A stretch of 64,000 bases of DNA from a bacterium (GTDB lineage: Bacteria > Verrucomicrobiota > Kiritimatiellia > RFP12 > UBA1067), in assembly GCA_037133395.1 (NCBI GenBank), contig JBAXOG010000002.1, forward strand, positions 26,180-90,179. Direction: 5' to 3'. Position 1 is the first letter of the stretch. Every line of letters starts with the position of its first letter. Both the position numbers and the translations under genes were made by a program. Positions 10,828-55,857 of the stretch are shown here, piece by piece. Below the pieces are notes generated by a model. It made no database searches. It worked only from the letters and a program-made list of their open reading frames with translations, and was not told where the DNA came from.

Positions 10828-11360
10828 GTGCAAATCTCCTCTGACAAACGGCGGGTGATGCAGTCATACAGCAATCCGCGAATCCGCCTCAATTTCTTAT
10901 AAACCGTATCCATCGGACACTGGAGATCTCTCGCCACGTCCTTCACAAAAACACGTGTCTGGTAACAGCGCTCTACCAAATCACGCTCTTCCGTCGGTAA
11001 CTTTTTCATGCACTGTTCAAGCGCACTGGCTCGGCGCTCCAATTCATCGGCTTGGTTTAACTGCTCCTCGGCAATATTTTCCAGCAGCTCTGCATCCCAA
11101 TTCACGACGGGGCTGCGCGTCTGCCGCTTGCGGTGATCCAACACCTTATACAAGGCAATCCGGCACGCCCAAGCGTAAAAACTCGTGCCGGGCTGGAACT
11201 CACTAAAGCGCCGAAACAGCACAAGATAAGTCTCCTGCAGAATATCATCCGCATGTGAATGATTTCTCAGCAGGGAAATGATAAACCCATAAAGACGAGC
11301 TTGGTTAGCCAGTAGCAACTGAATGAATTGTTCGTTGGTTTTTGTATCATCCATATACAT
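10824..11360 (-). CDS. ECF RNA polymerase sigma-70 factor (Rhodopirellula/Verrucomicrobium type)
   Basis: LYGFIISLLRNHSHADDILQET; FYAWACRIA; region 4 VYKKLRRIRGLLYDCI. Confidence 0.92.
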   Translation of the reverse strand: MYMDDTKTNEQFIQLLLANQARLYGFIISLLRNHSHADDILQETYLVLFRRFSEFQPGTSFYAWACRIALYKVLDHRKRQTRSPVVNWDAELLENIAEEQLNQADELERRASALEQCMKKLPTEERDLVERCYQTRVFVKDVARDLQCPMDTVYKKLRRIRGLLYDCITRRLSEEICT

Positions 11361-11872: not shown

Positions 11873-14779
11873 TTACTCGACTGCTGTTTTATATTTGATG
11901 CGCTTGTTCATGTAGAGGTCATATTTTTCGCGCTCGCCGTCACTCCAGGCGCCAGCCTCCGTATAGTTTTCGCAGAAGGGCACGCAGAGGTCAACCCACA
12001 TCGCGATAACAGCGACTTCTTGGGCTGTGATGGTCTTGCAATGGCCAGCATCCAGCTTTTTAAAGAACGGACTGGTATTCGATCCTTTGAAATAGGGCGG
12101 AATCAGTTTGACCGTCGAAGCCGCAGTGATCCAGTTTAGCAACTCGTGGTCTGCATTGCCGCGCCAACGCTGGCCCCCCTTCTTCTCATCTGAACGTGAA
12201 TGAGTCAGTGTCAAATAGGACTGCAACCAGGTGCGTTTCGCACCCGAGTCCAATACAGGCGTCTTTGTCAAATCATAGGTTCCTGGAAGTTTGTCTCCCT
12301 TTCCATCATGACACTTCACGCAATGACGGTCGAGAATCGGCTGAACTTCCTTGGTAAAGCTGAAGCCGCGCTTGGGCCCATTGATCGGTGCCAAGGCCTG
12401 TGCGCCTGTGGCTAGCGCTTTTGTGGTGCTTTTCTTATAGCTGGAGGGGACGCTATTCTTATTCTCATGGCATCCGACGCACGAAGCATTCTCGCCCTGT
12501 TGAAGTGTTGTCCAGCTTCGCATGGTCTGAACCATACGTCCCTTTTCATCCAGCAAAATAAAGTAAATCGGCTTGCAGGATTCTGTCTTGAAGAAGACAG
12601 ATCCGTCCTCGTAGACCTTTGCATCGCCCACGAGTATCTTCGGATCCCACGCGCCATTACCAATCGCAACAGGCGTACTCACCAGCGCACCGCCACCCGG
12701 CCCTCCATTGCCATTATTGCCAATGCCTGCCACGCGGAATTCAAGCTCAGCAACGCGCAGCGTCTTAATGGTGCCGCGCTTTACATCCTTCATGGGCTCG
12801 CCTTCATACACGTCCTGAATATAGAAGGAACCCTCTCGCTTGCCGTCCTGCACCATGGAGGGGCGTTGCAACGGACGCTTACGTGGAACAAGCGGCACCG
12901 CACGTCCGCAAGCCAAGCCCAGACGCGAGGCAAGTATCTCACGTTTGCCATCGATATCCATCCAGTAAATACCAAAGCCTGTCTTGCGATCACGGTCACG
13001 ACGACCTCCGCCCTTCGCGCCCCAGCCGATGGGATTGTACGTCACCACCAGTTGCTTCTGGTCGATCGGATAGGGATAAGCAAAGAGATCGTTTTCTTGT
13101 CCATAGCCATCGATGCGGATCGGATCTATTGCCGGCGGCGGACGGACAGGCGCCACAATCGTGATGCCTTCCGTTTCTTGACGTCCCTTGGCGGGCTCAA
13201 TGAAAATCAGCTCGCCCGGCTGGAAGGAGTGATGTCCCGTTGCAATAGCAAAGATGTTCGGCGACCCCGGAACAGCGCGGGCATGCGCAATGGTCGTCGG
13301 AAACCAGGAATTTTCGCCATAGACCGCAGTCTGTGCGGTGCCGTCTGGGAACATCTGGAACAAGGGCTGAGGATACATCTGGGAACGGTCATTGTATTCC
13401 CAGCGCGTGTACAGAATGCGGTTGTCCCACGTGAGGGTCGGATAGTTATCATGTACTTGGTCAAAAGCCATGCGCCGAATGTTTTTCCCGTTGGCGTCGC
13501 ACCCATACAGGTTACTCACCTCTGTCCACCAGCAATCAACCGTCTGCATACAACGCGAAGAGTTAAAGATAATCTTTCCATCGGCAAGATAACACCCTTC
13601 ATAATCTGCGACCCCCACGCCCTCCGTAAGCTGACGCATCTCTCCAATCTTCGTCCCAGTAGCATCCAAGGTGCATTCATAAAGATGGTAGTCATCCTCG
13701 CGGTCAGACTTTTTCCACGAGAACATGATCTTCTTGCCGTCAAAGTCCACATCGACATCACGAATGATTCCTTCCTTTGTCTCCAAAAGAATGGTCTCTT
13801 TCCAAAGTCCGTCCGGTGTCGCGTCTGCAAGGCAGAGCTGACCGCCAGCCCCAAAATTGCGTTCCGCCTGAGCATCAGAGACGGCTTCCGTATAGGCATA
13901 GTGTGATCCGCCCATCACAAAGTGACGCGCATAGACAAGCCTCGGCATGCCGCTAAAAACAGGTTTCAGACGAGCGGCGCGACGCGCCAAGCAAACCTTG
14001 CGATAAAAAGCGAGCATGGCCTTTACGTCATTTCCAGCAGGTACTTGCTCGGTATTCCATTTGCCACCCACATTCGTCCGCACGTCAGCCAGAGCCGCTT
14101 CCATGGCAACCTTCAGTTGCGCAACGCAATCCCCCTTATTTAGCAAGGCCATTCCATAATTATCCTTTAAATCTTGGCGCAACCAATCAGCCAGCAACTC
14201 ATCGCTCGTCTCAATCGCATCCCAAAGCTGATGATATGTCTGAGCCTTCTTCTGTAAGGGTTGCCCCAACAACTGTTCAACAAAAACAATAGCTTCTTCA
14301 GGGGACGAGACGGACGGACGAGGCCCGATATTTACATCAATCCCCTGCCCGCCCGAAGTCTGCAAGCAATGAACAGCAATGAAATTCTGTCCCTCTTTCA
14401 GGGTCGCTTGCGCCTCCTTCGAGATGGAAAATTCACGATATTCCGTAATATACCCCTTCGTCTCACAAGCCTTTAAACCATTGATATAGACGGTCGCATC
14501 CTCATCGTGGATCATCTTGAGGACACACGGGATTATCTTCTTAGGTTCCAATTGGAATGCGCGACGCATCCAAATATCTTTTGTGCGCCACTCGGTCTTC
14601 ACCTCAATATTCGGCGTGCCGGGTGTACCAAAGGGGCTTTCGCCCTTCTTCCAGGCGTCATCCTTAAAGTCCTGCTTAAACCAATCGTCAGCAGGCTTTA
14701 TAAAGGTATACTTCCACTCAACAGCCTGTGCAAAAAATGTCGCCCCTAAACACCCCATAACAAATAATACTTTTCTCAT
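11873..14779 (-). CDS. HzsA-like protein (hydrazine synthase alpha middle-domain family): N-terminal jelly-roll, beta-propeller, two c-heme motifs
   Basis: Signal peptide; galactose-binding-like HDEDATVYING; propeller DVDFDGKKIMFSWKK and GRILYTRWEY-like NRILYTRWEY; KPIYFILLDEKGRMVQTMRSW; CVGCH and CVKCH. Confidence 0.8.
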   Translation of the reverse strand: MRKVLFVMGCLGATFFAQAVEWKYTFIKPADDWFKQDFKDDAWKKGESPFGTPGTPNIEVKTEWRTKDIWMRRAFQLEPKKIIPCVLKMIHDEDATVYINGLKACETKGYITEYREFSISKEAQATLKEGQNFIAVHCLQTSGGQGIDVNIGPRPSVSSPEEAIVFVEQLLGQPLQKKAQTYHQLWDAIETSDELLADWLRQDLKDNYGMALLNKGDCVAQLKVAMEAALADVRTNVGGKWNTEQVPAGNDVKAMLAFYRKVCLARRAARLKPVFSGMPRLVYARHFVMGGSHYAYTEAVSDAQAERNFGAGGQLCLADATPDGLWKETILLETKEGIIRDVDVDFDGKKIMFSWKKSDREDDYHLYECTLDATGTKIGEMRQLTEGVGVADYEGCYLADGKIIFNSSRCMQTVDCWWTEVSNLYGCDANGKNIRRMAFDQVHDNYPTLTWDNRILYTRWEYNDRSQMYPQPLFQMFPDGTAQTAVYGENSWFPTTIAHARAVPGSPNIFAIATGHHSFQPGELIFIEPAKGRQETEGITIVAPVRPPPAIDPIRIDGYGQENDLFAYPYPIDQKQLVVTYNPIGWGAKGGGRRDRDRKTGFGIYWMDIDGKREILASRLGLACGRAVPLVPRKRPLQRPSMVQDGKREGSFYIQDVYEGEPMKDVKRGTIKTLRVAELEFRVAGIGNNGNGGPGGGALVSTPVAIGNGAWDPKILVGDAKVYEDGSVFFKTESCKPIYFILLDEKGRMVQTMRSWTTLQQGENASCVGCHENKNSVPSSYKKSTTKALATGAQALAPINGPKRGFSFTKEVQPILDRHCVKCHDGKGDKLPGTYDLTKTPVLDSGAKRTWLQSYLTLTHSRSDEKKGGQRWRGNADHELLNWITAASTVKLIPPYFKGSNTSPFFKKLDAGHCKTITAQEVAVIAMWVDLCVPFCENYTEAGAWSDGEREKYDLYMNKRIKYKTAVE

Positions 14780-14808: not shown

Positions 14809-14860
14809 CCGCCTAAAGGCGGAACTCCAAACAAAACACTAACGCACTAACGAACTAACC
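14809..14860. repeat. GGAG-type REP-like hairpin plus three 8-bp tandem repeats (cactaacg)
   Basis: ccgcct-aa-aggcgg-aactcc at 14809-14828; cactaacg/cactaacg/aactaacc at 14837-14860, overlapping the stop codon of the dehydrogenase. Confidence 0.8.
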
Positions 14861-15792
14861 TTCTCACCCTTCAACACCTTGATGATGTTGTCAACCGCCA
14901 TGATCCCCATACCCTTGACTGCTTCAGCCGTATGCGCGCCCGTGTGCGGCGTAAAGATCACATTCTTCAATCCCTTTAGCGGCGACACCAACAGCGGCTC
15001 CTGCTCAAACGCATCCAACCCGAGGCCACCCAGTTGCCCGCTGACAACCGCTTGCGCAGCCGCCTCTTCATCAATGAGCCCGCCCCGCGCGGTATTGATA
15101 ATGATAGCACCCTTTTTCATCTTTGCAATACGTTCCGCATGGATCATGCGTTTCGTCTCGTCGTTTAAGGGCACATGCAAGGAAACAAAATCAGATGTGG
15201 TGATCACTTCATCCATCGTCTTCTTTGCAATACCGTTCGCAGAAGCAAACGACTCATCAAAGAAGGGATCATACGCAACCACCGTCATACCAAAAGCGAT
15301 TGCGCGTTTCGCAAGATTTTTGCCAATGGCTCCAAGGCCCACAATGCCGAGGGTCTTGCCATTCAGCTCCATACCCTCATTCCGTGGCCACTCCCCAGCC
15401 TCCACGGCCTTGTGCAGACGGGGAATATTGCGCGCGACACAGAGCATCAATGCGAACGCCAATTCGCAGACTGCCACGGCATTGGTGCCTGGGGTATTGG
15501 TCACAATAATACCTCTGCGCTTGCATGCTGGCAAGTCCACGCGGTCAACACCCGCGCCATAGCGACTAATGACTTTCAGACTTGCAGGTGCTTTTTCAAT
15601 GACCTCAGCGGTGATGTAGTCGAGACCCGCCACATATCCATCTACCCCCTCAAGGCGGGCAAGGATCTCTTCGGGTTGAAGAGGCTTCCCTGTTTCGTTG
15701 TAAACCACTTCATCTGCAAATGCTTCAAGTGTTTTCCTGGCTTGCGCATTTTCAGGTTTCAGAAAAGATGTGGGCGTCGCTAATATTTTCAT
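14839..15792 (-). CDS. D-isomer-specific 2-hydroxyacid (phosphoglycerate dehydrogenase-like) dehydrogenase
   Basis: RYGAGVDRVD, GIVGLGAIG, INTARGGLIDE, TPHTGAHT; RBS GGAGGG before ATG 15792. Confidence 0.9.
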   Translation of the reverse strand: MKILATPTSFLKPENAQARKTLEAFADEVVYNETGKPLQPEEILARLEGVDGYVAGLDYITAEVIEKAPASLKVISRYGAGVDRVDLPACKRRGIIVTNTPGTNAVAVCELAFALMLCVARNIPRLHKAVEAGEWPRNEGMELNGKTLGIVGLGAIGKNLAKRAIAFGMTVVAYDPFFDESFASANGIAKKTMDEVITTSDFVSLHVPLNDETKRMIHAERIAKMKKGAIIINTARGGLIDEEAAAQAVVSGQLGGLGLDAFEQEPLLVSPLKGLKNVIFTPHTGAHTAEAVKGMGIMAVDNIIKVLKGEKVSSLVR

Positions 15793-15803
15793 GGTCCCCT
15801 CCG

Positions 15804-16412
15804 TTACTTCCATTTCGGATTGTCAATCGCTGCGGGCAGACCATCCTTCTCAACCAGAAGTTTACGATAACCCTTGGTTTCAATGGTACCGTAATCATGT
15901 CCGGCGTCCGCACGAAAAACAAAGAACGTAAAAAGCGGCTCCGTTGCACTGACGTTGATACTGCGATGCGCATAGCGTTTAGGAACGTAAACAACCTTGC
16001 CGGGCGTCAATTCCTGCGCAGACCAATCGCCTTCAGGGTTTTCCAGCAACATATAACCATGACCGCCCATACAATAATAAATCTCCGCAGTATCCAGAAT
16101 CGTGTGAAAATGTCCCTTGGTCATGAAATACTCATGCCCCACCTTTCCAGGATAAGTAATGGAACAGCCAAAGGCAAGGTCGCCCGCATGCTCTGGCACC
16201 CCCATTTCATGAAATTCATAGACAACAGGATCGCCCTGCTTGAGCATTTCTGCATACGCAACATCATCCGCAAACATGCCCTTCATCTGGCTTAATTTGC
16301 GCTGGGTTGTCGCCTTCTTGTCAGACGCTCCTGTCTTCAAATTAAAATCAATCAGAAATCCCCGTTCATAATCAAACGGATTTTCACTCGCATTAAAACT
16401 TGCCATATTCAT
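15804..16412 (-). CDS. Cupin-type (archaeal-like) glucose-6-phosphate isomerase family protein
   Basis: EYFMTKGHFH, AEIYY, PKRYAHRSIN, DAGHDYGTI. Confidence 0.9.
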   Translation of the reverse strand: MNMASFNASENPFDYERGFLIDFNLKTGASDKKATTQRKLSQMKGMFADDVAYAEMLKQGDPVVYEFHEMGVPEHAGDLAFGCSITYPGKVGHEYFMTKGHFHTILDTAEIYYCMGGHGYMLLENPEGDWSAQELTPGKVVYVPKRYAHRSINVSATEPLFTFFVFRADAGHDYGTIETKGYRKLLVEKDGLPAAIDNPKWK

Positions 16413-16433
16413 CCTTGTCTATAACTTCAATGG

Positions 16434-16600
16434 AATTGCCTTATTGCCTTATTGCGTTATTGCCTTATTGAATTCGTGTGGTTCGTGTTATTCGATGCTA
16501 AAAAGTTACTCTTTCGTTTATGGCCGGGGTCTCACTGCCAACTGCTACTGCCTACTGCCACCCTGTCCGCCGTAGGCATCGCGAAGGCGGATGTGCCGCC
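16434..16600. repeat. Intra-operon cluster of short tandem repeats and a hairpin
   Basis: tattgcct-type octamer x5 at 16434-16473; ttcgtg x2; actgcc(a/t) repeats; tccgcc..aaggcgga hairpin. Confidence 0.8.
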
Positions 16601-16613
16601 TCGGGTGGCTGGC

Positions 16614-17573
16614 TTACCTTCTATTGAACTCAGATGCCACACGGTCACACTCTTTCAGCAAGGCGCCCTCGATCTTGAGATCAAACACTTCAGCAATGAC
16701 CGATGTCCAACCGTAAATGAAGTACATCCAGCCATCCTCGACATAAAGGTTGCGGTCTGCCTTCTGCTCCAACCCCTGATGCATGAAGCGCAGGTCTCCG
16801 CGATAGTTAATCTCCCAAACTAACGCGTTTTGCGGAAACTTCGCGGCATCGGTCAGCGGAGATCCTGGACGGTCTTTACCGAGACCAGTCGCATTAATGA
16901 TGAGGGATCCTTTGGGCATCTTGTGTAACACGGTGTCATTCTGCCCAGGATCAGGCGTGAGAAAATACTCACATACTGTCTGTCCCTTTGTATTGAGCAG
17001 GGTCTTATTGATATGTTCAATTTCATCCAAGCGAGGCTTGCTACGATTCGCAACAATAATCTTGGATGGGTAATTGCCTGCGAATGCATCGCGCAGAAAG
17101 TAAGAGCACATGGAAATCGCGCTGCCACCTGCACCCATGATAAAAACACCGGCCTCCGGATTAGTTTTCCAGTAATTTTTGGGGACAAATTCTTCAAGTG
17201 CCAAACCACAGGTAATTGGATCCTTGGCATGGCCGCACAATTTTGCCCCGCGCTTTGAAATGGAAGAGAGTTCGCCGAACTGCGTGGCATACGGATCAAG
17301 ATAGTCGAACATGTCCTTGCAGGCGTCAAAGAGGTCAATCTTGTGCGTTGTCACCAGCGCACCCATGGAGAGCGGATCTTCTCTTAAAAACTTCACAACC
17401 TTACGATAAACTTCGGGGTCCGCATGAATCGTGATATCAATGCCCTTCATGACCGTATTTTTCAACCCCAATGTCTTGGCCCATTCCGGAAAGACCTTCA
17501 TGATGGATGAACTTCCAGTCGTCACGCCAATAAAGTACATCGTCGGTTGTGTCGCTGGCTCAAAGTTAAACAT
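16614..17573 (-). CDS. Shikimate/quinate dehydrogenase-like NAD(P)-binding protein
   Basis: GALVTTHKID, MGAGGSA, VANRS, INATGLGK, WEINYRG; divergent from AroE. Confidence 0.7.
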   Translation of the reverse strand: MFNFEPATQPTMYFIGVTTGSSSIMKVFPEWAKTLGLKNTVMKGIDITIHADPEVYRKVVKFLREDPLSMGALVTTHKIDLFDACKDMFDYLDPYATQFGELSSISKRGAKLCGHAKDPITCGLALEEFVPKNYWKTNPEAGVFIMGAGGSAISMCSYFLRDAFAGNYPSKIIVANRSKPRLDEIEHINKTLLNTKGQTVCEYFLTPDPGQNDTVLHKMPKGSLIINATGLGKDRPGSPLTDAAKFPQNALVWEINYRGDLRFMHQGLEQKADRNLYVEDGWMYFIYGWTSVIAEVFDLKIEGALLKECDRVASEFNRR

Positions 17574-18531
17574 GTCGCTTCTCCTTATTTATTCTCAGCG
17601 CTTCTTGTGGATTAGCCACAAGCATTTTTTCGCAATCTTCTTTGTTAACTCCTCGTTGCACTAGATAGGGCAGGAAGGTCTTGCTCAGGTAATCAAGTCC
17701 CATATCACCGCCATAATTATGTAACCGTACGCGCGTACTATCGAGCCCCAGCAGCAACTGTCCTGCATAGTCATTCTCAATCATCGCGCAAATTAAATCC
17801 GCCTCTTTCACATCATCGTGATACTTCACCCGATTAATCGTGTCATATTCCAAAAAAACCCCAGTGTCGAGACAGTCCTTATGATAGGCAAAATCATATT
17901 GTGCGCGATCCAAATGGCAGAGGATAATGCGGTGGGACTGAATCCCCCTATTTGCAAAGAAGATCAGGATTTCCAACGCATCCGCGCCCTTTTCAACATG
18001 GCAAAAGATGGTTGCTCCTGTTTCGACCGCAGCAGCAGCGGCAGCCTCAAAGAGTTTCTCGTAGGTCGCATCCGCATAAATGCCGCCTGCGTCAACGGCC
18101 ACTTTGATGAGGCCGGCTTTACAAAAGAGACGTTTTGCACCTGCACCCATAGACGAGAACATCCCCTGTTCAACTTCGCTGATGTAGAACTCGGTTATCG
18201 CTTGGACCGAATCACGGAAGATGTAACTGTCAGCATTGTAAAAGAGTGTCTTATGAAATCCCGTAACCGCAATGATCTTCACGCCCGTCTTTTCTGAAGC
18301 CGCCAACAAATGCTCGGCCATACGACCCGCAAACACAGGCTGCGCATCCACGAGGCTTTGACCGCCACAGGAGCGAAAGAGCTCGAGCTCAGCGGACGAT
18401 TTATCAAGATCGTCTATAAGCAAAAGAGGAGAAACTTCGAACGCTTTGCAACGCTCAATAAAGAGATGCTCATGACACTGGCAAAAGCCAAGTGTCTTCG
18501 CCTCAATATCACCTGTTACAGTCCGCACCAT
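17566..18531 (-). CDS. Phosphotriesterase-related amidohydrolase (possible lactonase)
   Basis: VRTVTGDI, CHEHL metal motif, IFCH, LCHLD, LLGLD. Confidence 0.88.
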   Translation of the reverse strand: MVRTVTGDIEAKTLGFCQCHEHLFIERCKAFEVSPLLLIDDLDKSSAELELFRSCGGQSLVDAQPVFAGRMAEHLLAASEKTGVKIIAVTGFHKTLFYNADSYIFRDSVQAITEFYISEVEQGMFSSMGAGAKRLFCKAGLIKVAVDAGGIYADATYEKLFEAAAAAAVETGATIFCHVEKGADALEILIFFANRGIQSHRIILCHLDRAQYDFAYHKDCLDTGVFLEYDTINRVKYHDDVKEADLICAMIENDYAGQLLLGLDSTRVRLHNYGGDMGLDYLSKTFLPYLVQRGVNKEDCEKMLVANPQEALRINKEKRHV

Positions 18532-18532
18532 A

Positions 18533-19552
18533 TTAATACTTCAGTAAGCACTTCACGACTTCACCGGACTTGACCGCAGCCACAGCCTGGACAATCTGTG
18601 CGACTGGGAAGGTGTGTGTCACAAATTCGGAAGCCTTCAGCTTTCCTTCGCGAATCCATTGGCATAGTGGCGCTTGTGCTGCGCGTTCTCGGGAACGTGT
18701 CGGCCACTGATGGACAATCAGATTGAAATTGTAAGGGCCTGTCGCCTTATCGAGCGTCAACTTTGACGCAGCCAACACACCATACACCCCTATCGTGCCG
18801 CCCAGCTTGATGAGTGGCAAAGCCGTGTTGATAATCTTTTCATGGCCGACCGCATCCACGACCACATCCAACGACTTCTTTTCGATGTCGAGTGCATCTG
18901 GCGCAAATACAGCATCCGCGCCCATGACCTTGGCGCGTTCGCGCTTGTGTGCCAGCGGATCAACAAGGCCTACCCACTTGACGCCCATCAGCTTGCAGAA
19001 CTTCACAAAACTCAAACCCACAGGGCCTGCACCAAAAATCAATACTTTATCCTTCGGCTGGATATTGAAGTCGCCGATACCGCCATAAACTTCGCGCCAC
19101 GTGCAGAGCAATGCCGCTTCAGCAGCCGGAATATCCGCATCCACCTTGGTCTGGATCTCATAGCATTCAAACCAGCCATGCTGTTCATCCGCCACGCCAT
19201 CCGCCACCATAGCGTCATGGTCATTGACGAGCACGTATTCACAGAAACCGCCCCACCCCGTTGAAATCTCTTTTTCTGCAAAGGAAAAAACTAAGCCACC
19301 CATGGCACGATCACCCTTTTTAAACGTGCGAACCTTTTCGCCGACCTGTTGCACGATCCCTGTGTTCTCATGTCCCAACGAAAGCGGATACTGATCCACG
19401 CCCGGAAAATGGCCTTCAATCAGCTTTCCGTCTGTGGCATTGCACAAGGCAGCAACATCTAACTTCACCAACGCCTGATAAGGTCCAGGCTTGGGTGCTT
19501 CGATTTCACGAACGCCAAACACGTCTGGTTTCTCAACGATGACTGCTCTCAT
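18533..19552 (-). CDS. Zinc-dependent polyol/alcohol dehydrogenase (MDR family)
   Basis: Catalytic Cys in ALCNATD, LGHE motif, GAGPVG Rossmann motif. Confidence 0.9.
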   Translation of the reverse strand: MRAVIVEKPDVFGVREIEAPKPGPYQALVKLDVAALCNATDGKLIEGHFPGVDQYPLSLGHENTGIVQQVGEKVRTFKKGDRAMGGLVFSFAEKEISTGWGGFCEYVLVNDHDAMVADGVADEQHGWFECYEIQTKVDADIPAAEAALLCTWREVYGGIGDFNIQPKDKVLIFGAGPVGLSFVKFCKLMGVKWVGLVDPLAHKRERAKVMGADAVFAPDALDIEKKSLDVVVDAVGHEKIINTALPLIKLGGTIGVYGVLAASKLTLDKATGPYNFNLIVHQWPTRSRERAAQAPLCQWIREGKLKASEFVTHTFPVAQIVQAVAAVKSGEVVKCLLKY

Positions 19553-21051
19553 AATGACTCCTTTTGTGCGGCCAAATCCTTATACACATCCACAAGCCTG
19601 CGATAAGCTTGTTCCATTACATCGCGGCGCATCCGATATTTGATTGCATGCTCAATATTCGGCTGCACCGTAGCATCGACACTCAGCAGTTGTTCAGCGA
19701 TGCTGAAATCCTTGAAGATTCCGCAGGCCACACCGCCGATAATTGCAGCACCCAAGGAAGTCGCCTCAGCCTTGGAGTTCAACGTCTGGACCGCGCATGA
19801 ACACGCTGAAGCCAGAATATGACGGAACACGTTGCTCTGTGCGCCGCCACCAATGATCGTGAGTTTTTCAATCGGCACGTGTACGCGGAAGATGTCGGCG
19901 ATGAGTCCCAGATTCATGGCCACGCCTTCCATCACTGCACGTAACATGTCCGCGCGTGTCGAAGCCAGGTTCAGTCCGATAAACGCTCCACGCGCATCGG
20001 GATTCCACCACGGCGTGCGTTCGCCCAGCATATACGGCAGGAAGAGTACGCCATTGGCACCCACGGGCGATGACTCCACCAGCGCTTCGATCTGCGCGAA
20101 GTCAGGACTCGTTGCGACCTGTTCAGACATCCATTTGAAACTCGACCCTGCGGTCTGCATCGTACCAGACGGATGAAGATAACCTGGAACGCAATGCGCC
20201 CAATTCATGGTCCGCATCTGCTCGTCTACAATCGGCTTTTCAACGGTCAGCGCAATCCAGCTCGACGAGCCCAAGCAGTTGTAAGCGCTGCCGGGCTTGA
20301 CGCAGCCAACACCGACACCTGCGGCACTGCCATCGCCGCCACCTGCTGCGACAGGGGTCCCAACAGCCAATCCTGTCTCTGCTGCGGCTTGAGGCGTGAT
20401 TCCACCAATGATGGTTGATGAATCAACAGCCTTTGGAAAATACGACACATCCAAGCCAGCAAGGCCGATTAGTTTTTCTGACCAAGTAAACGTATTGAGG
20501 TCAAAAGCGTTCGTGCCTGACGCATCGGAAAAATCCGTAGCCATCACGCCGGTCAGACGACAATTAATATAGTCCTTCGCGCAAAGCGTCTTAGCGGTTT
20601 TCTTAAAAACCTCCGGTTCATTATCACGCACCCACATCAGTTTTTCCAACGGGTACGACGAACTGGCGCGATGTCCGCAAATGCCATAAAACTCACGCAA
20701 CGAAATCTGATTGAGCAACGCAGCCTCTTCCTTTGTGGCCCGTTGGTCACAATAAAGGATGGAGGGACGCAAGGCACGACCGTCCTTATCCACAGGCGTG
20801 CACCCCATCATCTGACCGCTCAGGGAAACAACGGCGATCTCCTTCGGCGAGACCTTGGCCTCCGCGAGCAACTGCTTTGTTGAACCACAAACTGCCTTCC
20901 ACCAATCTTCCGGATTCTGTTCAGCCCATGAGCCATTAAAGAAGTTAGACGGATAGGATACCGTGGCACTCGCCATCTGCTTTCCCTCTTCCGAGTAAAG
21001 CGTGGCCTTATTGCCGCTCGTCCCTAAATCATGCGCCAGAATGTATTTCAT
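19549..21051 (-). CDS. FGGY-family carbohydrate kinase (xylulokinase-like)
   Basis: LAHDLGTSGNKA, SLSGQMMG, GGGDG, FLPYMLGERTPWW, AVMEGV, IGGGAQS. Confidence 0.92.
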   Translation of the reverse strand: MKYILAHDLGTSGNKATLYSEEGKQMASATVSYPSNFFNGSWAEQNPEDWWKAVCGSTKQLLAEAKVSPKEIAVVSLSGQMMGCTPVDKDGRALRPSILYCDQRATKEEAALLNQISLREFYGICGHRASSSYPLEKLMWVRDNEPEVFKKTAKTLCAKDYINCRLTGVMATDFSDASGTNAFDLNTFTWSEKLIGLAGLDVSYFPKAVDSSTIIGGITPQAAAETGLAVGTPVAAGGGDGSAAGVGVGCVKPGSAYNCLGSSSWIALTVEKPIVDEQMRTMNWAHCVPGYLHPSGTMQTAGSSFKWMSEQVATSPDFAQIEALVESSPVGANGVLFLPYMLGERTPWWNPDARGAFIGLNLASTRADMLRAVMEGVAMNLGLIADIFRVHVPIEKLTIIGGGAQSNVFRHILASACSCAVQTLNSKAEATSLGAAIIGGVACGIFKDFSIAEQLLSVDATVQPNIEHAIKYRMRRDVMEQAYRRLVDVYKDLAAQKESL

Positions 21052-21060
21052 GGGATTCCC

Positions 21061-21546
21061 CTATTTAAAGAGTTCAGCGCCAGTAAACCCAATCAGTCCT
21101 GTAATGGCACCACCGACAACACCCCCGAGGACGGCAACAAAAATGCGCGGCAGACTCTCGATTGCCAAGGATCTACGCGTCCCCTTTTGTGCGCCGATGA
21201 GACAATGAACCCAGAATCCGCAGGCAATGGCGCTTCCCATGTCAACCCACGGACACGCGCCCTTATAGGCCTGATAAATCAGTCCATACTGCTTCCATCC
21301 GCCATCCGGATAAGAGATACCATCGGGATTGATACCAAAGCCGGGAAGCTTATGATTCAAGAGCCAAAAGGTGCCGATGATGATCGTGGCACTCATAAAG
21401 CCGCCGATGGGGCCAAAGTCGCGCACAAGCTTCGGCCAGCAAATAATAACGGCAAACGTTGCACAGAAGGCGCCAAAGATGGTGGTGATCACACTGACTG
21501 GCGGCATACCGAGTGCAGGATTAAAGGTGGAGAGCCATTCAATCAT
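21061..21546 (-). CDS. Small membrane protein, Lin0368-like putative transporter subunit
   Basis: Several TM helices; GPIGGFMSATIIIGTFWLLNH and WVDMG parallel the paralog upstream; ATGA overlap sets the start at 21546. Confidence 0.65.
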   Translation of the reverse strand: MIEWLSTFNPALGMPPVSVITTIFGAFCATFAVIICWPKLVRDFGPIGGFMSATIIIGTFWLLNHKLPGFGINPDGISYPDGGWKQYGLIYQAYKGACPWVDMGSAIACGFWVHCLIGAQKGTRRSLAIESLPRIFVAVLGGVVGGAITGLIGFTGAELFK

Positions 21547-21932
21547 TTGGACACCTCCTTCTCTTCCAGATTTTGCCAGCCAGGCGCAACTTGCTTGACC
21601 ACATGGGCGGCCCAGCCTGCGAGCGCGCCGCCGATGAGACAACAAATCAACGTCGGAAAAATGTGCGTGAAGTGCGAGTTGGGATAAAAACGGACAAGCC
21701 CCCAGACAATGCCTGAAGCCGCAATCGGCCACCCTTGATCCACCCAAAGCGTCCCCTTCGGATTATCCATCACACCCAGCCAGTGGTTCATATACCACAT
21801 GGTGCCAATCACGACAGACGCTGTCAAAAATCCGCCCATAATTCCATACGTCTTCCACATCTCCGGCCATATCCCGAAGGCAAGCGAACCAACAATCGCC
21901 CCCCCGATAAACGTTGATAAATGTCTTTTCAT
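21543..21932 (-). CDS. Small membrane protein, Lin0368-like putative transporter subunit
   Basis: YGIMGGFLTASVVIGTMWYMNH, WVDQG; 129 aa with about 4 TM segments. Confidence 0.7.
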   Translation of the reverse strand: MKRHLSTFIGGAIVGSLAFGIWPEMWKTYGIMGGFLTASVVIGTMWYMNHWLGVMDNPKGTLWVDQGWPIAASGIVWGLVRFYPNSHFTHIFPTLICCLIGGALAGWAAHVVKQVAPGWQNLEEKEVSK

Positions 21933-22001: not shown

Positions 22002-22152
22002 CGCAGTTATAGGCAAGGCATCAAAATTCTTAATTGTCCGTACAATATAACAGACCCCTTTATGACCGTCAAGCCGTTATCTAATTATAATTTTGAATCG
22101 CACTTACTCACATTTCTTGACGTACTGTCGTGTTTTTGGCATTCTTTCCGAC

Positions 22153-23529
22153 ATGACACTGACAGCGCCAAAAACCCGATCAAGCAAAACTTTCTTAGGT
22201 CATCCGGTAGGACTGTTCGTCCTGTTCTTCACAGAAATGTGGGAACGCTTCTCATATTACGGCATGCGAGCACTCCTGATGCTCTACATGACTCAGTACC
22301 TGATTAAGGCTGCAGAGACGGGTACGACCATTGTGGGGTTTGCAACCCTCAAAGGCGGACTTGAAGCGGTTTTCGGATCGCTCGCCATTCAGCCATTGGC
22401 CTCGCAAATTTACGGCCTCTACACGGGGTTTGTCTATTTCACTCCGTTCTTCGGAGGCATTCTCGCAGACCGTCTGCTGGGCCAGCGCAAAACCGTGGTG
22501 ATCGGTGGCATCCTGATGGCCACTGGCCAATTCCTCCTCGCCTGTGAGCGGTTCTTCCTCTTGGCGCTTTTGTTCCTGATCATCGGCAATGGCTGTTTCA
22601 AGCCCAACATCTCCACTCAAGTCGGCAACCTTTACGAACATGGCGATCCACGCCGCGATGGCGCGTTTACAATCTTTTATATGGGCATCAATCTGGGGGC
22701 TTTTTTCTCACCCCTTATTTGCGGCACGCTGGGTCAAATCTATGGCTGGCACTATGGGTTCATCGCGGCTGGTGTCGGCATGTTGATCGGATTAGTGGTC
22801 TACTTGACTGGACAGAAATACCTCGCACCTGACAATTTGATGACGAAGGCCGCTGACGCTCACAGTGAAAAGACAGCGCTCACGGCAAAAGAGTGGAAGG
22901 GTATTCTCGGACTGTGCTGTCTCTGCATCCTGAACATCGTCTTCTGGGGGGTATACGAACAACAGGGGAACACGATTCAACTATTTGCTGATAAAAATAC
23001 CGACTGGCATGTCTTCGGCTGGGAAATGCCTTCGACATGGTTTCAATCTCTGAACCCTCTCTTCGTCTTCGCGTTGGCACCCTTCCTCAACATGTTCTGG
23101 GGCAAGCAGGCGAAGCGAGGGAAAGAACCCTCAAGCATTGCTAAAATGGCATTGGGCTGCCTGATGCTCGGCGTCTCCTTCCTCGTGCTGATGTTTGCTA
23201 CCAAAGGCATGGGCGAAACCCATCGCATCACCTTCCTCTGGCTCGTGCTGTGCACCTTCATCTATACCTTGGGCGAGCTCTACCTTTCACCGATCGGCTT
23301 GTCGCTGGTGACCAAGGTTGCGCCAGCCCGTCTGGTGAGCATGCTGATGGGGATGTGGTTCCTCTCCTCATTCTTCGGCAATTACCTGTGCGGATACTTG
23401 GGCACCTATTACGAGAAGATGCCCAAGGATAGCTTCTTCATGATGCTCACCTTGCTCGGCGTCATTGCAGGTGTCGCCATGTTCGCGCTCAAGGGTCCAC
23501 TCAAGAAGGCCATCGGCGAAGATGTGTGA
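22153..23529 (+). CDS. POT/PTR family proton-dependent oligopeptide transporter
   Basis: FTEMWERFSYYGMR (ExxERFxYY), GNGCFKPNIS, FYMGINLGAF, GELYLSP. Confidence 0.95.
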   Translation: MTLTAPKTRSSKTFLGHPVGLFVLFFTEMWERFSYYGMRALLMLYMTQYLIKAAETGTTIVGFATLKGGLEAVFGSLAIQPLASQIYGLYTGFVYFTPFFGGILADRLLGQRKTVVIGGILMATGQFLLACERFFLLALLFLIIGNGCFKPNISTQVGNLYEHGDPRRDGAFTIFYMGINLGAFFSPLICGTLGQIYGWHYGFIAAGVGMLIGLVVYLTGQKYLAPDNLMTKAADAHSEKTALTAKEWKGILGLCCLCILNIVFWGVYEQQGNTIQLFADKNTDWHVFGWEMPSTWFQSLNPLFVFALAPFLNMFWGKQAKRGKEPSSIAKMALGCLMLGVSFLVLMFATKGMGETHRITFLWLVLCTFIYTLGELYLSPIGLSLVTKVAPARLVSMLMGMWFLSSFFGNYLCGYLGTYYEKMPKDSFFMMLTLLGVIAGVAMFALKGPLKKAIGEDV

Positions 23530-23720: not shown

Positions 23721-25034
23721 ATGGATATACGTGAAGTGAACAGGGCTTTAAGTGCGGGGAAGACCGATGAGCCTGGGGTACTGCCCAAGCTTGCAGAATT
23801 GCGTGAACAACCTTTTGTCATGGATACAGGGTTCAGTATTTCTGAGCTACCGGATCAGCCAGGTGTTTTGATCATCCGAGGTGCGCGTCAATATGGAAAG
23901 AGCACCTGGCTGCAGCAACAGATCGCCCAAACAATCAGACGCTTTGGCCCTGGATCGGCTTTTTATCTTGATGGAGATGAGTTACGCGACAGCGATGCGT
24001 TGTTGGAGGCGGTTCGAGAGCTACTCCCGCTTTATGACTCCAAAACGCCAGTCCGCAGACTCTTCATTGACGAGATCACCGCGATCAAGGATTGGCAAAA
24101 CGGGCTTAAACGTTTACTTGACCGTGGCGAACTCAAGCGAACGCTTGTCGTGACCACGGGCTCAAAAGCCGCAGATCTGAGACATGGTTCGGAACAGCTC
24201 CCCGGACGAAAAGGCACACTTGCGCGTAGCAGCCACCTCTTCACACCCGTGCCCTATTCCGAGTTCAAACGGGTCTGCGCGCCTACGCTAAACCCTGCGG
24301 ATGTACTGCCAGCCTATCTCCTCTCTGGGGGTTCACCTTGCGCGTGCACGTCACTGGCTGTTCAAGGACATCTTCCTGATCACCTTGTCGAAATGGTCAG
24401 GGACTGGGTCTACGGCGAGGTCTCGGCATCTGGCCGGTCACGTCCGATGATGAAGGGGGTCATGGAGTGCCTCATGCGTTTTGCCGGCACGCCTGTTGGT
24501 CAGTCAAAGTTGGCGCGCGAGGCGGGGTTGGCGAATAACACAGTCGCCGCAGGTTATGTTGACCTGCTCTCGGACCTCATGAGCGCAGCCGCCTGCTTTG
24601 CGTGGGACGATGCGCATCGGCGTCCAAACCGGCGGAGGCCTTGCAAATTTCATATCACCAACCTCCTTGTCGCTGCTGTATGGCATCCCTGTCGCCTGCG
24701 GCGGCCAGCCGACATCCGATCCCTCCCCCCCGAAGAACAGGGCGGGTTAATGGAGTGGCTCGTCGCCCAGGAGCTTTTCAGAAGGGCGGCACTTAGAGGA
24801 GACGAATTCCCCGAAGTGATGTCATACTGGAACACGGGCGAGCATGAACTCGACTTCGTCCTGGGACCTGACCGTTTCATCGAGGTCAAAAGGGGTCGCA
24901 CAGGGCCTCTGGACTTCATCTGGTTCCCCAAATGTTTTCCCAAAGGACACCTGACCGTGATCTCCGAGTCTCGCTACGAGACTGACCATATCCGCGGAGT
25001 CACGCTAGACGACTTTCTCCTCGGATTGCCTTAA
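23721..25034 (+). CDS. AAA+ ATPase with DUF4143 / nuclease-like C-terminus
   Basis: Walker A GARQYGKST, Walker B LFIDEI, VTTGS, YLLSGGSP, C-terminal HELDFVL..IEVK (PD-(D/E)XK-like). Confidence 0.88.
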   Translation: MDIREVNRALSAGKTDEPGVLPKLAELREQPFVMDTGFSISELPDQPGVLIIRGARQYGKSTWLQQQIAQTIRRFGPGSAFYLDGDELRDSDALLEAVRELLPLYDSKTPVRRLFIDEITAIKDWQNGLKRLLDRGELKRTLVVTTGSKAADLRHGSEQLPGRKGTLARSSHLFTPVPYSEFKRVCAPTLNPADVLPAYLLSGGSPCACTSLAVQGHLPDHLVEMVRDWVYGEVSASGRSRPMMKGVMECLMRFAGTPVGQSKLAREAGLANNTVAAGYVDLLSDLMSAAACFAWDDAHRRPNRRRPCKFHITNLLVAAVWHPCRLRRPADIRSLPPEEQGGLMEWLVAQELFRRAALRGDEFPEVMSYWNTGEHELDFVLGPDRFIEVKRGRTGPLDFIWFPKCFPKGHLTVISESRYETDHIRGVTLDDFLLGLP

Positions 25035-25095
25035 CACCCTTCTCAAAGCCACCTTCTCGTTCTTCGGCAGATGCCAATGCACTTCCCCCGCCCTC

Positions 25096-25308
25096 CATTC
25101 ACGCATTCACGCATTCGCGCATTTCTCAACCTCTCTCCCCATCCGCGCAAAATCCGCGTCATCCGTAGCTAAAAACGAAGCAACGCGATCTGCACGTGCA
25201 TGTTCATTCCTGTCTGTGCAACAACGGCAGACAGAAATGTCTGCCACACCTTATGTTGGCATCGCTGAGCACTGGAAAATGAACACGTTATTTCATGTGT
25301 CCAATGTC
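25096..25308 (+). repeat. Composite repeat unit, copy A: cattcNcg octamers plus a ~150-bp segment with a GAAA-loop hairpin
   Basis: Octamers at 25096-25127; aatccgcgtcatccg; ggcagacagaaatgtctgcc at 25226-25245; tail to catgtgtccaatgtc matches copy B. Confidence 0.92.
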
Positions 25309-25315
25309 GTCTAGA

Positions 25316-26473
25316 TCATTGGTTTAAAATTCCAAGAGCCTCTTGGTGCTTGGCTTGGATGAATTTTTCCAGTTTGTCCTTCGAGGGTAAATTCACTGCG
25401 TATTGGGAGACAAAGAGTTGGTTGTCCATGCTGGCGGTGGCGTATTCCACCAGTGCATGGTCTTTGTCGGTACAGAGCAACAGCCCCACGGGCAAGTTGT
25501 CGCCAGCGGACATCTTATGTCTGCGATACCAGGTGACGTAGGTGTTGAGCTGGCCCAGATGATCATGTTTAAACTCGTCCACCTTCAACTCGACCAGCAC
25601 ATGGCACTTGAGTATGCGGTGGTAAAAGACAAGATCCACAAAACCACGCGTCTTGCCGATGACGATGCTCTTCTGCTGCGCTTCCAGACAGAAGCCGTGG
25701 CCCAGTTCGAGCAGAAATTCCCGCAGGTTCTCCACCAGTGCCGCTTCGAGATCAGTCTCAGAAACCGCATCCTTTGCCCGCAGACCGAGAAACTCAAAGA
25801 TGTAGGGATCACGAATGGCTAGTTTCGGTTCTGCTGTCTCAACACCCTTCTTCACCATCGCCGCCAGCTTCTCCTTGTCCTTTGACAAACCCGAACGCTC
25901 GAAATAGAGCGTAGCGATCTGACGCTTCAATGCCCGCACTGACCAATTGCCGCGAATGCATTCGATCTCGTAGAAGGCTCGTTTGAGCGGGTCGTCGAGA
26001 TCAACAATGAGTTCGATATGACTGTATGAAAGTCGATTGATCAATTGCTCAACCGCCACGCCTAATTGTGGGGACGCTGTCCCCACTTTTCGCACAGGCA
26101 CGGGTATAGCTGGAAATTGTGGGGACAGTGTACCCACAATTCCCGGATAGAGTCGCCAGAATCTTAAATAACGGTAAAGTTGTCGGCGGTTGCTGTTGGA
26201 AACTCTCAGCTCTGTGAGCTGATCCGCTAACGCATCTAGTAGCCCGTCCCCATACTTTGCCCGGTCTGCTCCGTTCAATTCGTAGTGGTGAATATAGGCC
26301 CCGATAGTCCAGTTTCGCAGCGTCAACGTAACATTGACAACACGAGTGCCCTGAACAGTACAGTACTCGTCAACTTGCTGGATCGCCTTCACAAGCGCGG
26401 CGAAATCCAATTGAGTGCTGCTGTCCTTCGTGGTACTGCGTTTCTTAACAATGGCATTCTTCTTAATTGGCAT
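25316..26473 (-). CDS. DUF1016 / YhcG-like PD-(D/E)XK nuclease-domain protein
   Basis: LRNWTIGAYI, LSYSH, WSVRALKRQI, IRDPYIFEFLGL, FLLELGHGF, VDLVFYHRILKCHVLVELK, GQLNTY. Confidence 0.93.
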   Translation of the reverse strand: MPIKKNAIVKKRSTTKDSSTQLDFAALVKAIQQVDEYCTVQGTRVVNVTLTLRNWTIGAYIHHYELNGADRAKYGDGLLDALADQLTELRVSNSNRRQLYRYLRFWRLYPGIVGTLSPQFPAIPVPVRKVGTASPQLGVAVEQLINRLSYSHIELIVDLDDPLKRAFYEIECIRGNWSVRALKRQIATLYFERSGLSKDKEKLAAMVKKGVETAEPKLAIRDPYIFEFLGLRAKDAVSETDLEAALVENLREFLLELGHGFCLEAQQKSIVIGKTRGFVDLVFYHRILKCHVLVELKVDEFKHDHLGQLNTYVTWYRRHKMSAGDNLPVGLLLCTDKDHALVEYATASMDNQLFVSQYAVNLPSKDKLEKFIQAKHQEALGILNQ

Positions 26474-52579: not shown

Positions 52580-52600
52580 AACTCCCCCCCTCATTATCGT

Positions 52601-53566: not shown

Positions 53567-53576
53567 AGAAATCCTT

Positions 53577-54746: not shown

Positions 54747-54755
54747 GTTTCTCCT

Positions 54756-55535: not shown

Positions 55536-55857
55536 AAGCCACCCGTGTTGTTTAATATGTAAACTATAATACACATTTTAACTTACGATGGCAACCACAA
55601 ATAAAATATTACGCTCTTATTATATTTCTGTTACGATCAGTCTCAATTGCCAGAAGTCACAGCTCTCACGTTCTAATCTAAATTTAATATATTCCTCTGC
55701 TGAAAATCACACTCTTCCTAGTTCCCCCTCCCTCTGTAAAATTCCTTCCAACGCATCTAAGTCTCAAATTGAAATGCAGGGGTGAGCATGATATAGTATG
55801 GCTCATTCACTTGTTATTTGTATAACTATGGGGTTAAATAAAAAATCAGGAGCAGGC

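Follow-up and report, generated by a model that had tools for sequence, protein, structure and literature searches.

Here we describe a locus in a stretch of 64,000 nucleotides (nt), which was analysed as a whole and is called the window hereafter, from a bacterium of the Kiritimatiellia (Verrucomicrobiota; assembly GCA_037133395.1, contig JBAXOG010000002.1, positions 26,180 to 90,179). The locus lies on the minus strand from position 21932 towards position 11873, and is a sugar catabolic operon that joins two separately conserved modules, so that it forms a mosaic. The first module, the front end, comprises two small membrane proteins of the DUF6905 family (memA and memB), an FGGY kinase and a zinc-dependent dehydrogenase (ZnDH). 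The second module, the cassette, comprises a protein of the phosphotriesterase (PTE) family, a divergent oxidoreductase of the shikimate dehydrogenase (SDH) fold (sdhL), a cupin-type phosphohexose isomerase (cPGI) and a D-2-hydroxyacid dehydrogenase (hacDH) similar to phosphoglycerate dehydrogenases (PGDH). The locus is best read as encoding a logic like that of the Entner-Doudoroff (ED) and pentose phosphate (PPP) pathways, built from non-orthologous enzymes, with an unusual putative transporter and an exported haem protein as partner. The features, in the direction of transcription, are the following (aa, amino acids).

22044..22072, minus strand: best sigma-70-like -35/-10 match upstream of memA, TTGACG-17-TATATT with TG (consensus match only)
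21543..21932, minus strand: memA, small membrane protein of the DUF6905/Lin0368 family, putative transporter subunit, 129 aa (PF21846)
21061..21546, minus strand: memB, second DUF6905 subunit and paralogue of memA, 161 aa (PF21846)
19549..21051, minus strand: FGGY kinase, xylulokinase-like (FGGY_N and FGGY_C, TIGR01312)
18533..19552, minus strand: medium-chain zinc dehydrogenase, ZnDH (ADH_N and ADH_zinc_N)
17566..18531, minus strand: putative binuclear-metal lactonase of the PTE family (PF02126)
16614..17573, minus strand: sdhL, divergent NAD(P) oxidoreductase of the shikimate dehydrogenase fold, 319 aa (assigned by fold and motifs, without a Pfam match)
16413..16613, minus strand: intergenic gap of 201 nt with a short 8-nt tandem repeat of the GCAATAAG type (read from the sequence)
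15804..16412, minus strand: cupin-type phosphohexose isomerase, cPGI (PF06560)
14839..15813, minus strand: hacDH, D-isomer 2-hydroxyacid dehydrogenase, PGDH-like (2-Hacid_dh and 2-Hacid_dh_C)
11873..14779, minus strand: HzsA-like beta-propeller protein, predicted to be exported, with two CxxCH haem motifs, 968 aa (PF18582)

The eight co-directional open reading frames (ORFs) from 21932 to 14839 are all present, and the identities that an earlier note on this DNA had given to them were borne out by the ORF coordinates and by matches to family models. The same note described the run as tightly coupled, which holds for most junctions, where genes overlap or lie 1-9 nt apart, but not between sdhL and the cupin gene with their gap of 201 nt. 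ATGA overlaps were read at the memA/memB and kinase/ZnDH junctions, PTE and sdhL overlap by 8 nt, cupin and hacDH by 10 nt, and gaps of 9 nt and 1 nt separate memB from the kinase and ZnDH from PTE. The start of memB was set at 21546, which gives 161 aa as in its relatives; the TTG start in the ORF list (228 aa) is an over-extension. No convincing terminator was found inside the eight-gene run, and terminator-like sites occurred only at chance level. The HzsA-like gene begins 59 nt after hacDH, and the operon probably extends to the end of this gene (11873), giving nine genes in all. Both the mosaic of two modules and the haem protein as part of the conserved unit had been overlooked in the earlier reading.

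Conservation of the front end was examined in 77 genome loci with DUF6905, on which all front-end counts rest. The memA/memB pairing was seen in 74 of them, the pair was followed by orthologues of the kinase (54-70% identity) in 59, and ZnDH orthologues (47-74%) were present in 65. Carriers include Bacteroides thetaiotaomicron, B. faecis, B. ovatus, Parabacteroides, Kiritimatiellia, Verrucomicrobiota, Lentisphaeraceae, Acidobacteriota and Planctomycetota; the memA/memB orthologues of B. thetaiotaomicron and its relatives share 49-78% identity with those of the window. Sixty-one loci also possess an SGL/NHL-like beta-propeller, mostly directly upstream of memA; both copies that were translated carry a lipoprotein signal and are hence exported. 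Two kinds of genes follow the front end. A deoxyribose-phosphate aldolase (DERA, DeoC) was found in 41 of the 77 loci, and is bona fide according to TIGR00126 (258.7 bits, cut-off 117.3). At least part of the sdhL-cupin-hacDH cassette was found in ten loci (sdhL in 7, cupin in 10, hacDH in 7). None of the 77 loci has both.

The operon of B. thetaiotaomicron, seen in a metagenome-assembled genome (L135, 7799-18321), encodes an SGL-like lipoprotein, two DUF6905 proteins, a xylulokinase, ZnDH, DeoC and an HzsA-related protein, and then two more propellers, of which the first is a dihaem peroxidase-like propeller protein and the last a Mala_s_1-like propeller. The HzsA-like protein of this operon is AAO79531.1 of strain VPI-5482. 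By accession arithmetic anchored on BT4416 as CutC, the operon corresponds to approximately BT4416-BT4426, a range that may be off by one or two. Our literature searches covered full texts, with most subscription-journal papers outside their scope; for BT4421-BT4424 they returned nothing functional, and the sole mention found was a transcriptome table under iron limitation that lists BT4421-22 as hypothetical proteins. The source records label the relatives of the front-end kinase 'xylulokinase'.

For the cassette, a scan with sdhL limited to one genome per species gave 296 relatives, of which 80 loci were fetched; the cassette counts rest on these 80, scored by tblastn plus all-against-all clustering. 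Of these, 76 loci have the cupin, 70 have hacDH and 64 have PTE, and the genes almost invariably run PTE-sdhL-cupin-hacDH. An aldolase for 2-keto-3-deoxy-6-phosphogluconate (KDPG) or 2-keto-4-hydroxyglutarate (KHG), namely Eda, lies directly 3' of hacDH in 51 of the 80. Other recurrent neighbours are an FGGY kinase (48/80), a DeoR regulator (42/80), a Zn dehydrogenase (40/80) and an IolG-like Gfo/Idh/MocA enzyme (39/80), and no dehydratase family was found in any of the 80 loci. The carriers are mainly Christensenellaceae, Lachnospiraceae and Oscillospiraceae, that is, gut Clostridia; further carriers are genomes of Planctomycetota and Lentisphaerota and one metagenome-assembled genome labelled Burkholderiales. 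A protein search with sdhL returned at least 8000 matches (clusters at 90% identity), labelled 'shikimate dehydrogenase' where they are named. The synteny of the cassette is far beyond chance, and so is that of memA, memB, kinase and ZnDH. Some cassettes of Firmicutes and Planctomycetes are accompanied by a sub-module of three genes, encoding a FucI-C-like protein of 444 aa, an IolE-like TIM barrel and a Gfo/Idh enzyme similar to levoglucosan dehydrogenase (L005, 15261-18682; also L044, L054 and L062).

The two modules of the window have different affinities. The front end, of a kind typical of Bacteroidota and of the Planctomycetes-Verrucomicrobia-Chlamydiae (PVC) group, is closest to versions from Lentisphaeraceae and Kiritimatiellia (62-78%). 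The cassette is nearest to Firmicutes versions, and its similarity to copies from Christensenellaceae (sdhL 77-81%, hacDH 70-78%, cupin 65-72%, PTE 54-59%) exceeds that of the DUF6905-linked cassettes in other Gram-negative phyla (sdhL 47-53%, hacDH 39-44%, cupin 41-66%), which also lack PTE. The guanine-cytosine (GC) content of PTE, sdhL and cupin (15804-18531) is 46.6-48.4%, compared with 52-54% in the neighbouring genes of the operon. Because of this GC contrast and the affinity to Christensenellaceae, the cassette appears to have been acquired laterally, replacing DeoC in an operon of the type found in the PVC group.

Among the front-end proteins, memA and memB match PF21846/DUF6905 with 93.9 and 83.6 bits (cut-off 27), and neither matched an NCBIfam model. 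They are 42% identical to each other over 64 residues, and hydropathy and modelling indicate approximately four helices in each; the AlphaFold2 model of memA has four helices, with a confidence (predicted local distance difference test, pLDDT) of 68, too poor for a fold search. NCBI gives relatives of memA the name 'Lin0368 family putative glycerol transporter subunit', which is itself a prediction, and the literature searches gave nothing functional on DUF6905/Lin0368. The small heterodimeric transporter proposed in the earlier note fits these paired paralogous proteins of about four helices. The kinase passes the equivalog cut-off of TIGR01312 XylB (403.7 bits, cut-off 380.25) but stays below that of PRK15027 (267, cut-off 912). 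Its second-best model is an FGGY gluconokinase, and its best solved relative is XylB of E. coli (2itm, E 1.8e-71). The kinase would phosphorylate the terminal CH2OH of a ketose, and its context, with DERA or the cassette downstream, argues for a ketose other than D-xylulose. ZnDH reaches the cut-off of no NCBIfam model; its nearest structure is RspB (4ilk, E 4e-22), and the residues Cys37 and His61-Glu62 were read from its sequence. It is a candidate polyol or aldehyde oxidoreductase feeding the kinase.

Within the cassette, the PTE protein matches PF02126 with 147.7 bits. Its best PDB matches are 3msr/3ovg (1.2e-37), followed by 3pnz, with E-values from 1e-32 to 1e-37; the PDB titles do not name these proteins, which we take to be MS53_0025 of M. 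synoviae and Lmo2620 of Listeria, respectively. All ligands of the binuclear metal centre (HxH, bridging Lys, two His, Asp) are conserved; in the alignment with 3msr and 3pnz they fall in the motifs CHEH, IKVA, CHVE, CHLD and LDST. We take the phosphate site of Lmo2620 to be K242/K244/R275/Y278, whose letters agree with the 3pnz sequence. The aligned residues of the window protein are R/K/R/L, that is, cationic at three of the four positions. With 173.3 the protein does not reach the cut-off of the NF045706 equivalog (630). It is probably a lactonase that acts on a phosphorylated sugar lactone.

The sdhL protein has no Pfam match and scores 29.6 bits with AroE TIGR00507, far from the cut-off of 200.2. 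Its AlphaFold2 model (pLDDT 89) was matched by Foldseek to AroE structures with E 1e-15 and template modelling (TM) scores of 0.6-0.79, and the sugar-acting SDH-family member 5-ketofructose reductase (7cok) is among the fold matches. All of 28 homologues keep the catalytic Lys78/Asp118 dyad, the GAGGS motif (Rossmann GxGGxx) and the NRS motif, which is of a type linked to the use of NADP. The genomic context of sdhL consists of sugar clusters with the cupin PGI and hacDH, and not of aromatic amino-acid biosynthesis. We regard sdhL as a putative sugar-phosphate 1-dehydrogenase. Natural fusions of sdhL to the cupin phosphoglucose isomerase (PGI) were found in two proteins (P0057, 514 aa; P0107, 522 aa), and point to a joint action of the two enzymes, possibly in consecutive steps.

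The cupin matches PF06560 with 104 bits (cut-off 20.7), and aligns over its full length with the phosphoglucose isomerase structures 1j3p and 1x7n/1x82 (about 55% identity, E 1.8e-55); these and 2gc0 we take to be cPGIs of Thermococcus and Pyrococcus. It carries the aligned cPGI motifs TKGHxH...ExY and HRxxN, and is almost certainly a hexose-6-phosphate aldose-ketose isomerase. The hacDH protein matches PF02826 with 199 bits and TIGR01327 (SerA equivalog; cut-off 454) with only 308 bits; among solved structures it is nearest to 3-phosphoglycerate dehydrogenases (E 5e-60). It would turn a phospho-2-hydroxyacid into a 2-keto acid.

The HzsA-like protein scores 95.4 bits with PF18582, and possesses a signal-peptide-like N-terminus, a propeller, a middle domain of the hydrazine synthase alpha type and the two CxxCH motifs. 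Orthologues with 87-91% identity lie 3' of hacDH in both near relatives (L001 and L002), and 38 of the 77 DUF6905 loci, including that of B. thetaiotaomicron, have an orthologue with 40-53% identity within or next to them. The orthologue stands just after DeoC in the loci of Bacteroides and Parabacteroides, and in the one annotated locus of B. thetaiotaomicron the dihaem peroxidase-like protein follows 3' of it. NCBI names the orthologue 'HzsA-related protein', and the literature searches yielded nothing functional on HzsA-like proteins. This gene is probably a conserved distal member of DUF6905 operons. The window harbours a second HzsA-like dihaem propeller protein (957 aa) in a cluster at 49721-55574, beside an NHL/SGL-like propeller, a URO-D-family protein and an IclR regulator; these genes appear to form a paralogous system whose cytoplasmic partner differs.

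From gene content, synteny, family and fold assignments, the fusion proteins and the absence of the searched dehydratase families we infer the substrates, the reaction order and the transport role in the following route. The HzsA-like dihaem protein would act outside the cytoplasm, and the DUF6905 heterodimer would import a small neutral polyol or ketose. ZnDH would make a ketose, or trim the substrate to one, and the XylB-like FGGY kinase would phosphorylate it at the terminal carbon. The cupin PGI would then convert ketose-6-phosphate to aldose-6-phosphate, sdhL would oxidise C1 with NADP to give lactone-6-phosphate, the PTE lactonase would open this to 6-phosphoaldonate, and the PGDH-like hacDH would oxidise the hydroxyl at C2 to yield 2-keto-6-phosphoaldonate. 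The net change made by the cassette would be that of a CH2OH-CO- terminus to HOOC-CO-. This order was chosen as the simplest in which each enzyme has a step and which agrees with the sdhL-cupin fusion. The earlier note had placed oxidation first, followed by lactone hydrolysis, phosphorylation and isomerisation. That order is probably wrong, and phosphorylation likely precedes isomerisation, C1 oxidation and lactone hydrolysis, because the PTE protein is nearest to phospho-sugar lactonases and has cationic residues at three of their four phosphate-site positions, the cupin is approximately 55% identical to PGIs, and the relatives closest to hacDH are 3-phosphoglycerate dehydrogenases.

The genes that feed the cassette, in the window and in other genomes, are consistent with this input. 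They vary between a Zn dehydrogenase, a FucI-like isomerase, and an aldo-keto reductase (AKR) or Gfo/Idh enzyme, and an FGGY kinase is almost always alongside; the variety of feeders with the same kinase type points to a terminally phosphorylated ketose as the input of the cassette. In the Firmicutes loci L046, L049, L057 and L063, orthologues of the window's ZnDH (35-45%) and kinase (47-51%) precede the cassette and Eda. L057 lacks PTE, and L069 has the orthologous kinase alone before the cassette.

The product of the cassette would be a substrate of Eda only if C3 is already deoxy, and this leads to the hypothesis of a 3-deoxy hexose, hexulose or hexitol as substrate. From 3-deoxyfructose, 3-deoxyglucosone or a 3-deoxyhexitol, for example, the product would be KDPG, which the single, unlinked Eda of the host could cleave to pyruvate and glyceraldehyde-3-phosphate in an ED-like route free of dehydratases. 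3-Deoxyglucosone and 3-deoxyfructose are products of Maillard reactions and sugar degradation in food, gut and decaying biomass. Some loci have a glyoxalase-family gene 3' of Eda, and the loci of Lachnospiraceae have an AKR; both agree, as weak circumstantial indications, with a 2-oxoaldehyde such as 3-deoxyglucosone.

The window cluster itself contains no Eda. The single Eda of the host genome is encoded on another contig (C134, locus L082, 1789-6669) in a cluster of the unsaturated-uronate type, with a GH88 domain fused to DUF4861, KduI, KduD and a PfkB kinase (KdgK). The host genome also possesses canonical Zwf and Gnd, and one gene of the IlvD/Edd family on another contig. Since Zwf and Gnd are present, a function of the cassette as replacement of the oxidative PPP was ruled out. 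Dehydratases were searched in seven cassette-bearing genomes of Firmicutes. Edd above its cut-off was found in none of the seven, and neither was UxuA; UxaA was found in one, and a real dehydratase of the mandelate racemase/muconate-lactonizing enzyme (MR/MLE) type in only two. In Christensenella sp. Marseille-P2438 (complete genome), C. tenuis and Guopingia tenuis, neither Edd, UxuA, UxaA nor MR/MLE dehydratases were detected. The in-cluster Eda is the only copy in the two Christensenella genomes, and Guopingia tenuis has one further copy elsewhere. Therefore, in these three genomes, a KDPG-type substrate must arise without a known sugar-acid dehydratase.

Taken as a whole, with one catabolic operon from 21932 to approximately 11873, two modules and the route as proposed, this explanation is plausible, with a probability that we place somewhat below an even chance. 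The generic conversion of a ketose phosphate to a 2-keto-phosphoaldonate stands at about an even chance, and the specification of a 3-deoxy hexose is doubtful. Both are held at this level because DERA is the alternative gene behind the same front end. Several observations weigh against the proposed route. DERA follows this front end in 41 loci, and 2-deoxyribose-5-phosphate cannot be a substrate of a cPGI; unless the reading of a shared intermediate is wrong, the specificity of the front ends must differ. In the cassette loci of PVC bacteria and Acidobacteria, neither Eda nor a lactonase is adjacent. Tyr278 of the phosphate site is not kept in the PTE protein, where it is replaced by Leu, and transcription may be interrupted by the gap of 201 nt that precedes the cupin gene. 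The route also gives no account of what the HzsA-like protein does. To our knowledge, SDH-family enzymes do not act as aldose-1-dehydrogenases, and for the marine, soil and gut lineages with these modules we know of no established natural source that supplies 3-deoxy hexoses in abundance.

Two unrelated modules that merely abut would be an alternative to a single route. DUF6905, ZnDH and the xylulokinase would then form a pentitol route (xylitol, arabitol) to D-xylulose-5-phosphate, and the cassette would serve its own, unlinked substrate. A polyol dehydrogenase and a xylulokinase are a classic pair, the kinase does pass the XylB equivalog cut-off, the front end occurs without the cassette in at least 41 loci and the cassette without this front end in most loci of Firmicutes. 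The GC content of PTE, sdhL and cupin, 4-6 points lower, and their affinity to Christensenellaceae also suggest a recent insertion. Nonetheless, the stop of ZnDH and the start of PTE lie 1 nt apart in one operon, and orthologous ZnDH and kinase precede the cassette in L046, L049, L057 and L063, with the kinase alone in L069. DERA and cassette are mutually exclusive (41 versus 10 loci, none with both), as expected of alternative downstream routes, whereas xylulose-5-phosphate requires neither. We regard this alternative as unlikely.

The close similarity of the cupin to true PGIs would also suit a non-deoxy rare hexose-6-phosphate, derived for example from psicose, tagatose or sorbose, as substrate. 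The cassette would convert it to a 6-phosphoaldonate, and the 2-keto product of hacDH would be re-reduced by another reductase with inversion at C2, giving 6-phosphogluconate for Gnd. The host genome has Gnd, 2-keto-6-phosphogluconate reductases are, like hacDH, members of the D-2-hydroxyacid dehydrogenase family, and no aldolase stands beside the cassette in the window or in PVC-type loci. However, the clusters lack a second conserved 2-keto reductase, and the Eda 3' of hacDH in 51 of 80 loci would be left without a role, while the genomes of Christensenellaceae lack Edd and the other searched dehydratases that could supply it. This makes such a route improbable.

A further reading replaces phosphate by carboxylate, with sugar-acid intermediates. 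The cupin would be a uronate-type isomerase, sdhL would act on a carboxylated ring, PTE on a non-phosphorylated lactone, and the kinase would act last, on a product like 2-keto-3-deoxygluconate (KDG). A ring carboxylate is the usual ligand of SDH-family enzymes and could also be bound by the cationic residues of PTE; the second-best kinase model is the FGGY gluconokinase, and a GH88-like gene stands beside one related locus (L087). This is hard to reconcile with a cupin about 55% identical to phosphoglucose isomerases, with phospho-lactonases as closest relatives of PTE and with phosphoglycerate dehydrogenases as closest relatives of hacDH, and ordinary uronates would still need a dehydratase. 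We consider it very improbable.

Known pathways were rejected as matches. The Thermotoga-type inositol pathway (IolG, IolM, IolN, IolO) needs a dehydratase, and the window cluster lacks IolG- and IolM-like genes; a Christensenella variant of the cassette does have IolG-like and IolM-like genes, which score below their cut-offs. The L-glucose/L-galactose pathway of Luteolibacter (PMC12632266) was ruled out, as it uses a dehydratase and other families. Sulfoquinovose routes (PMC11968277) were ruled out since neither a sulfoquinovosidase nor a sulfonate exporter is present and sulfo-ED needs a dehydratase; the cupin of these routes belongs to a different family, DUF4867 (PMC11968277). The SGL-like propeller cannot stand in for the PTE lactonase, given that its lipoprotein signal marks it as exported. 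An oxidative phospho-deoxyribose route that would unite DERA and cassette was dismissed, because a PGI cannot act on a 2-deoxy aldose, which also lacks the 2-hydroxyl needed by hacDH.

The absence of a recognised pathway, as stated in the earlier note, was upheld by the full-text searches, which gave no gene-for-gene match, although such absence is not proof. The proposed chemistry follows the same order as Pgi-Zwf-Pgl-Edd-Eda of the oxidative PPP and ED pathways: isomerisation, oxidation of C1, lactone opening, a 2-keto acid and a KDPG-type aldolase. However, the window enzymes all come from other families (cupin PGI, SDH-fold dehydrogenase, PTE lactonase), a PGDH-like hacDH takes the place of Edd, and KDPG would arise only from a 3-deoxy substrate. 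Lmo2620- and MS53_0025-type enzymes act on pentono-1,4-lactone-5-phosphates. The window PTE shares their family, their metal ligands and the cationic character of three of four phosphate-site positions, but differs in its distance (E 1e-32 to 1e-37; NF045706 173 versus 630) and in Leu for Y278. Compared with cPGIs of the Thermococcus/Pyrococcus type, the window cupin is bacterial, stands in a catabolic cassette and has homologues that are sometimes fused to sdhL; its substrate may be an analogue of glucose-6-phosphate. Similar to pairs of sorbitol or xylitol dehydrogenase with XylB, the locus has a Zn dehydrogenase next to a XylB-like kinase with dedicated, here putative, uptake. In contrast to these polyol-utilisation pairs, its ZnDH matches no characterised equivalog, the transporter is a DUF6905 pair, dehydrogenase and kinase are followed by DERA or the cassette, and exported haem and propeller proteins are often alongside. 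With the B. thetaiotaomicron operon it shares an orthologous front end and the HzsA-like protein, but it has PTE-sdhL-cupin-hacDH instead of DERA and lacks the SGL-like propeller lipoprotein.

Other genes surround the operon. On the same strand, 512 nt downstream of the HzsA-like gene, an extracytoplasmic function (ECF) sigma factor and a FecR-like anti-sigma factor with a Laminin_G_3 domain are encoded at 9112-11360; this pair may regulate the locus. Upstream lies a divergent peptide transporter of the POT family (22093-23529), and just past it, at 23721-26473, an AAA_14/DUF4143 ATPase and a YhcG-type PDDEXK nuclease. The window also harbours a NotI-family restriction endonuclease gene followed by a gene for a D12-class N6-adenine methyltransferase (55798-57686).

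The front end is present in the model organism B. thetaiotaomicron and its relatives, and the cassette in human-gut Christensenellaceae, Lachnospiraceae and Oscillospiraceae. The nearest models and structures label the cupin 'glucose-6-phosphate isomerase' and hacDH 'phosphoglycerate dehydrogenase', and a solved pathway would tell which of these two labels, and of the names 'shikimate dehydrogenase' and 'xylulokinase', are wrong. The presence of a KDPG aldolase in Christensenella, in spite of the absence of all searched dehydratase families, would also be explained, and HzsA-like haem proteins outside anammox bacteria could become accessible to physiological study for the first time. As a speculation with a low probability, cassette and Eda may together form an undescribed, very widespread ED-type pathway for 3-deoxy sugars that needs no dehydratase, in which Gram-negatives would add the DUF6905 importer and exported HzsA-like dihaem enzymes that generate or unmask the substrate outside the cell. 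If this speculation holds, it would give first functions to four orphan families, namely DUF6905, the sdhL clade, the HzsA-like proteins outside anammox bacteria and a clade of PTE. If that substrate is a dietary glycation product, the pathway would bear on the handling of glycotoxins in the gut.

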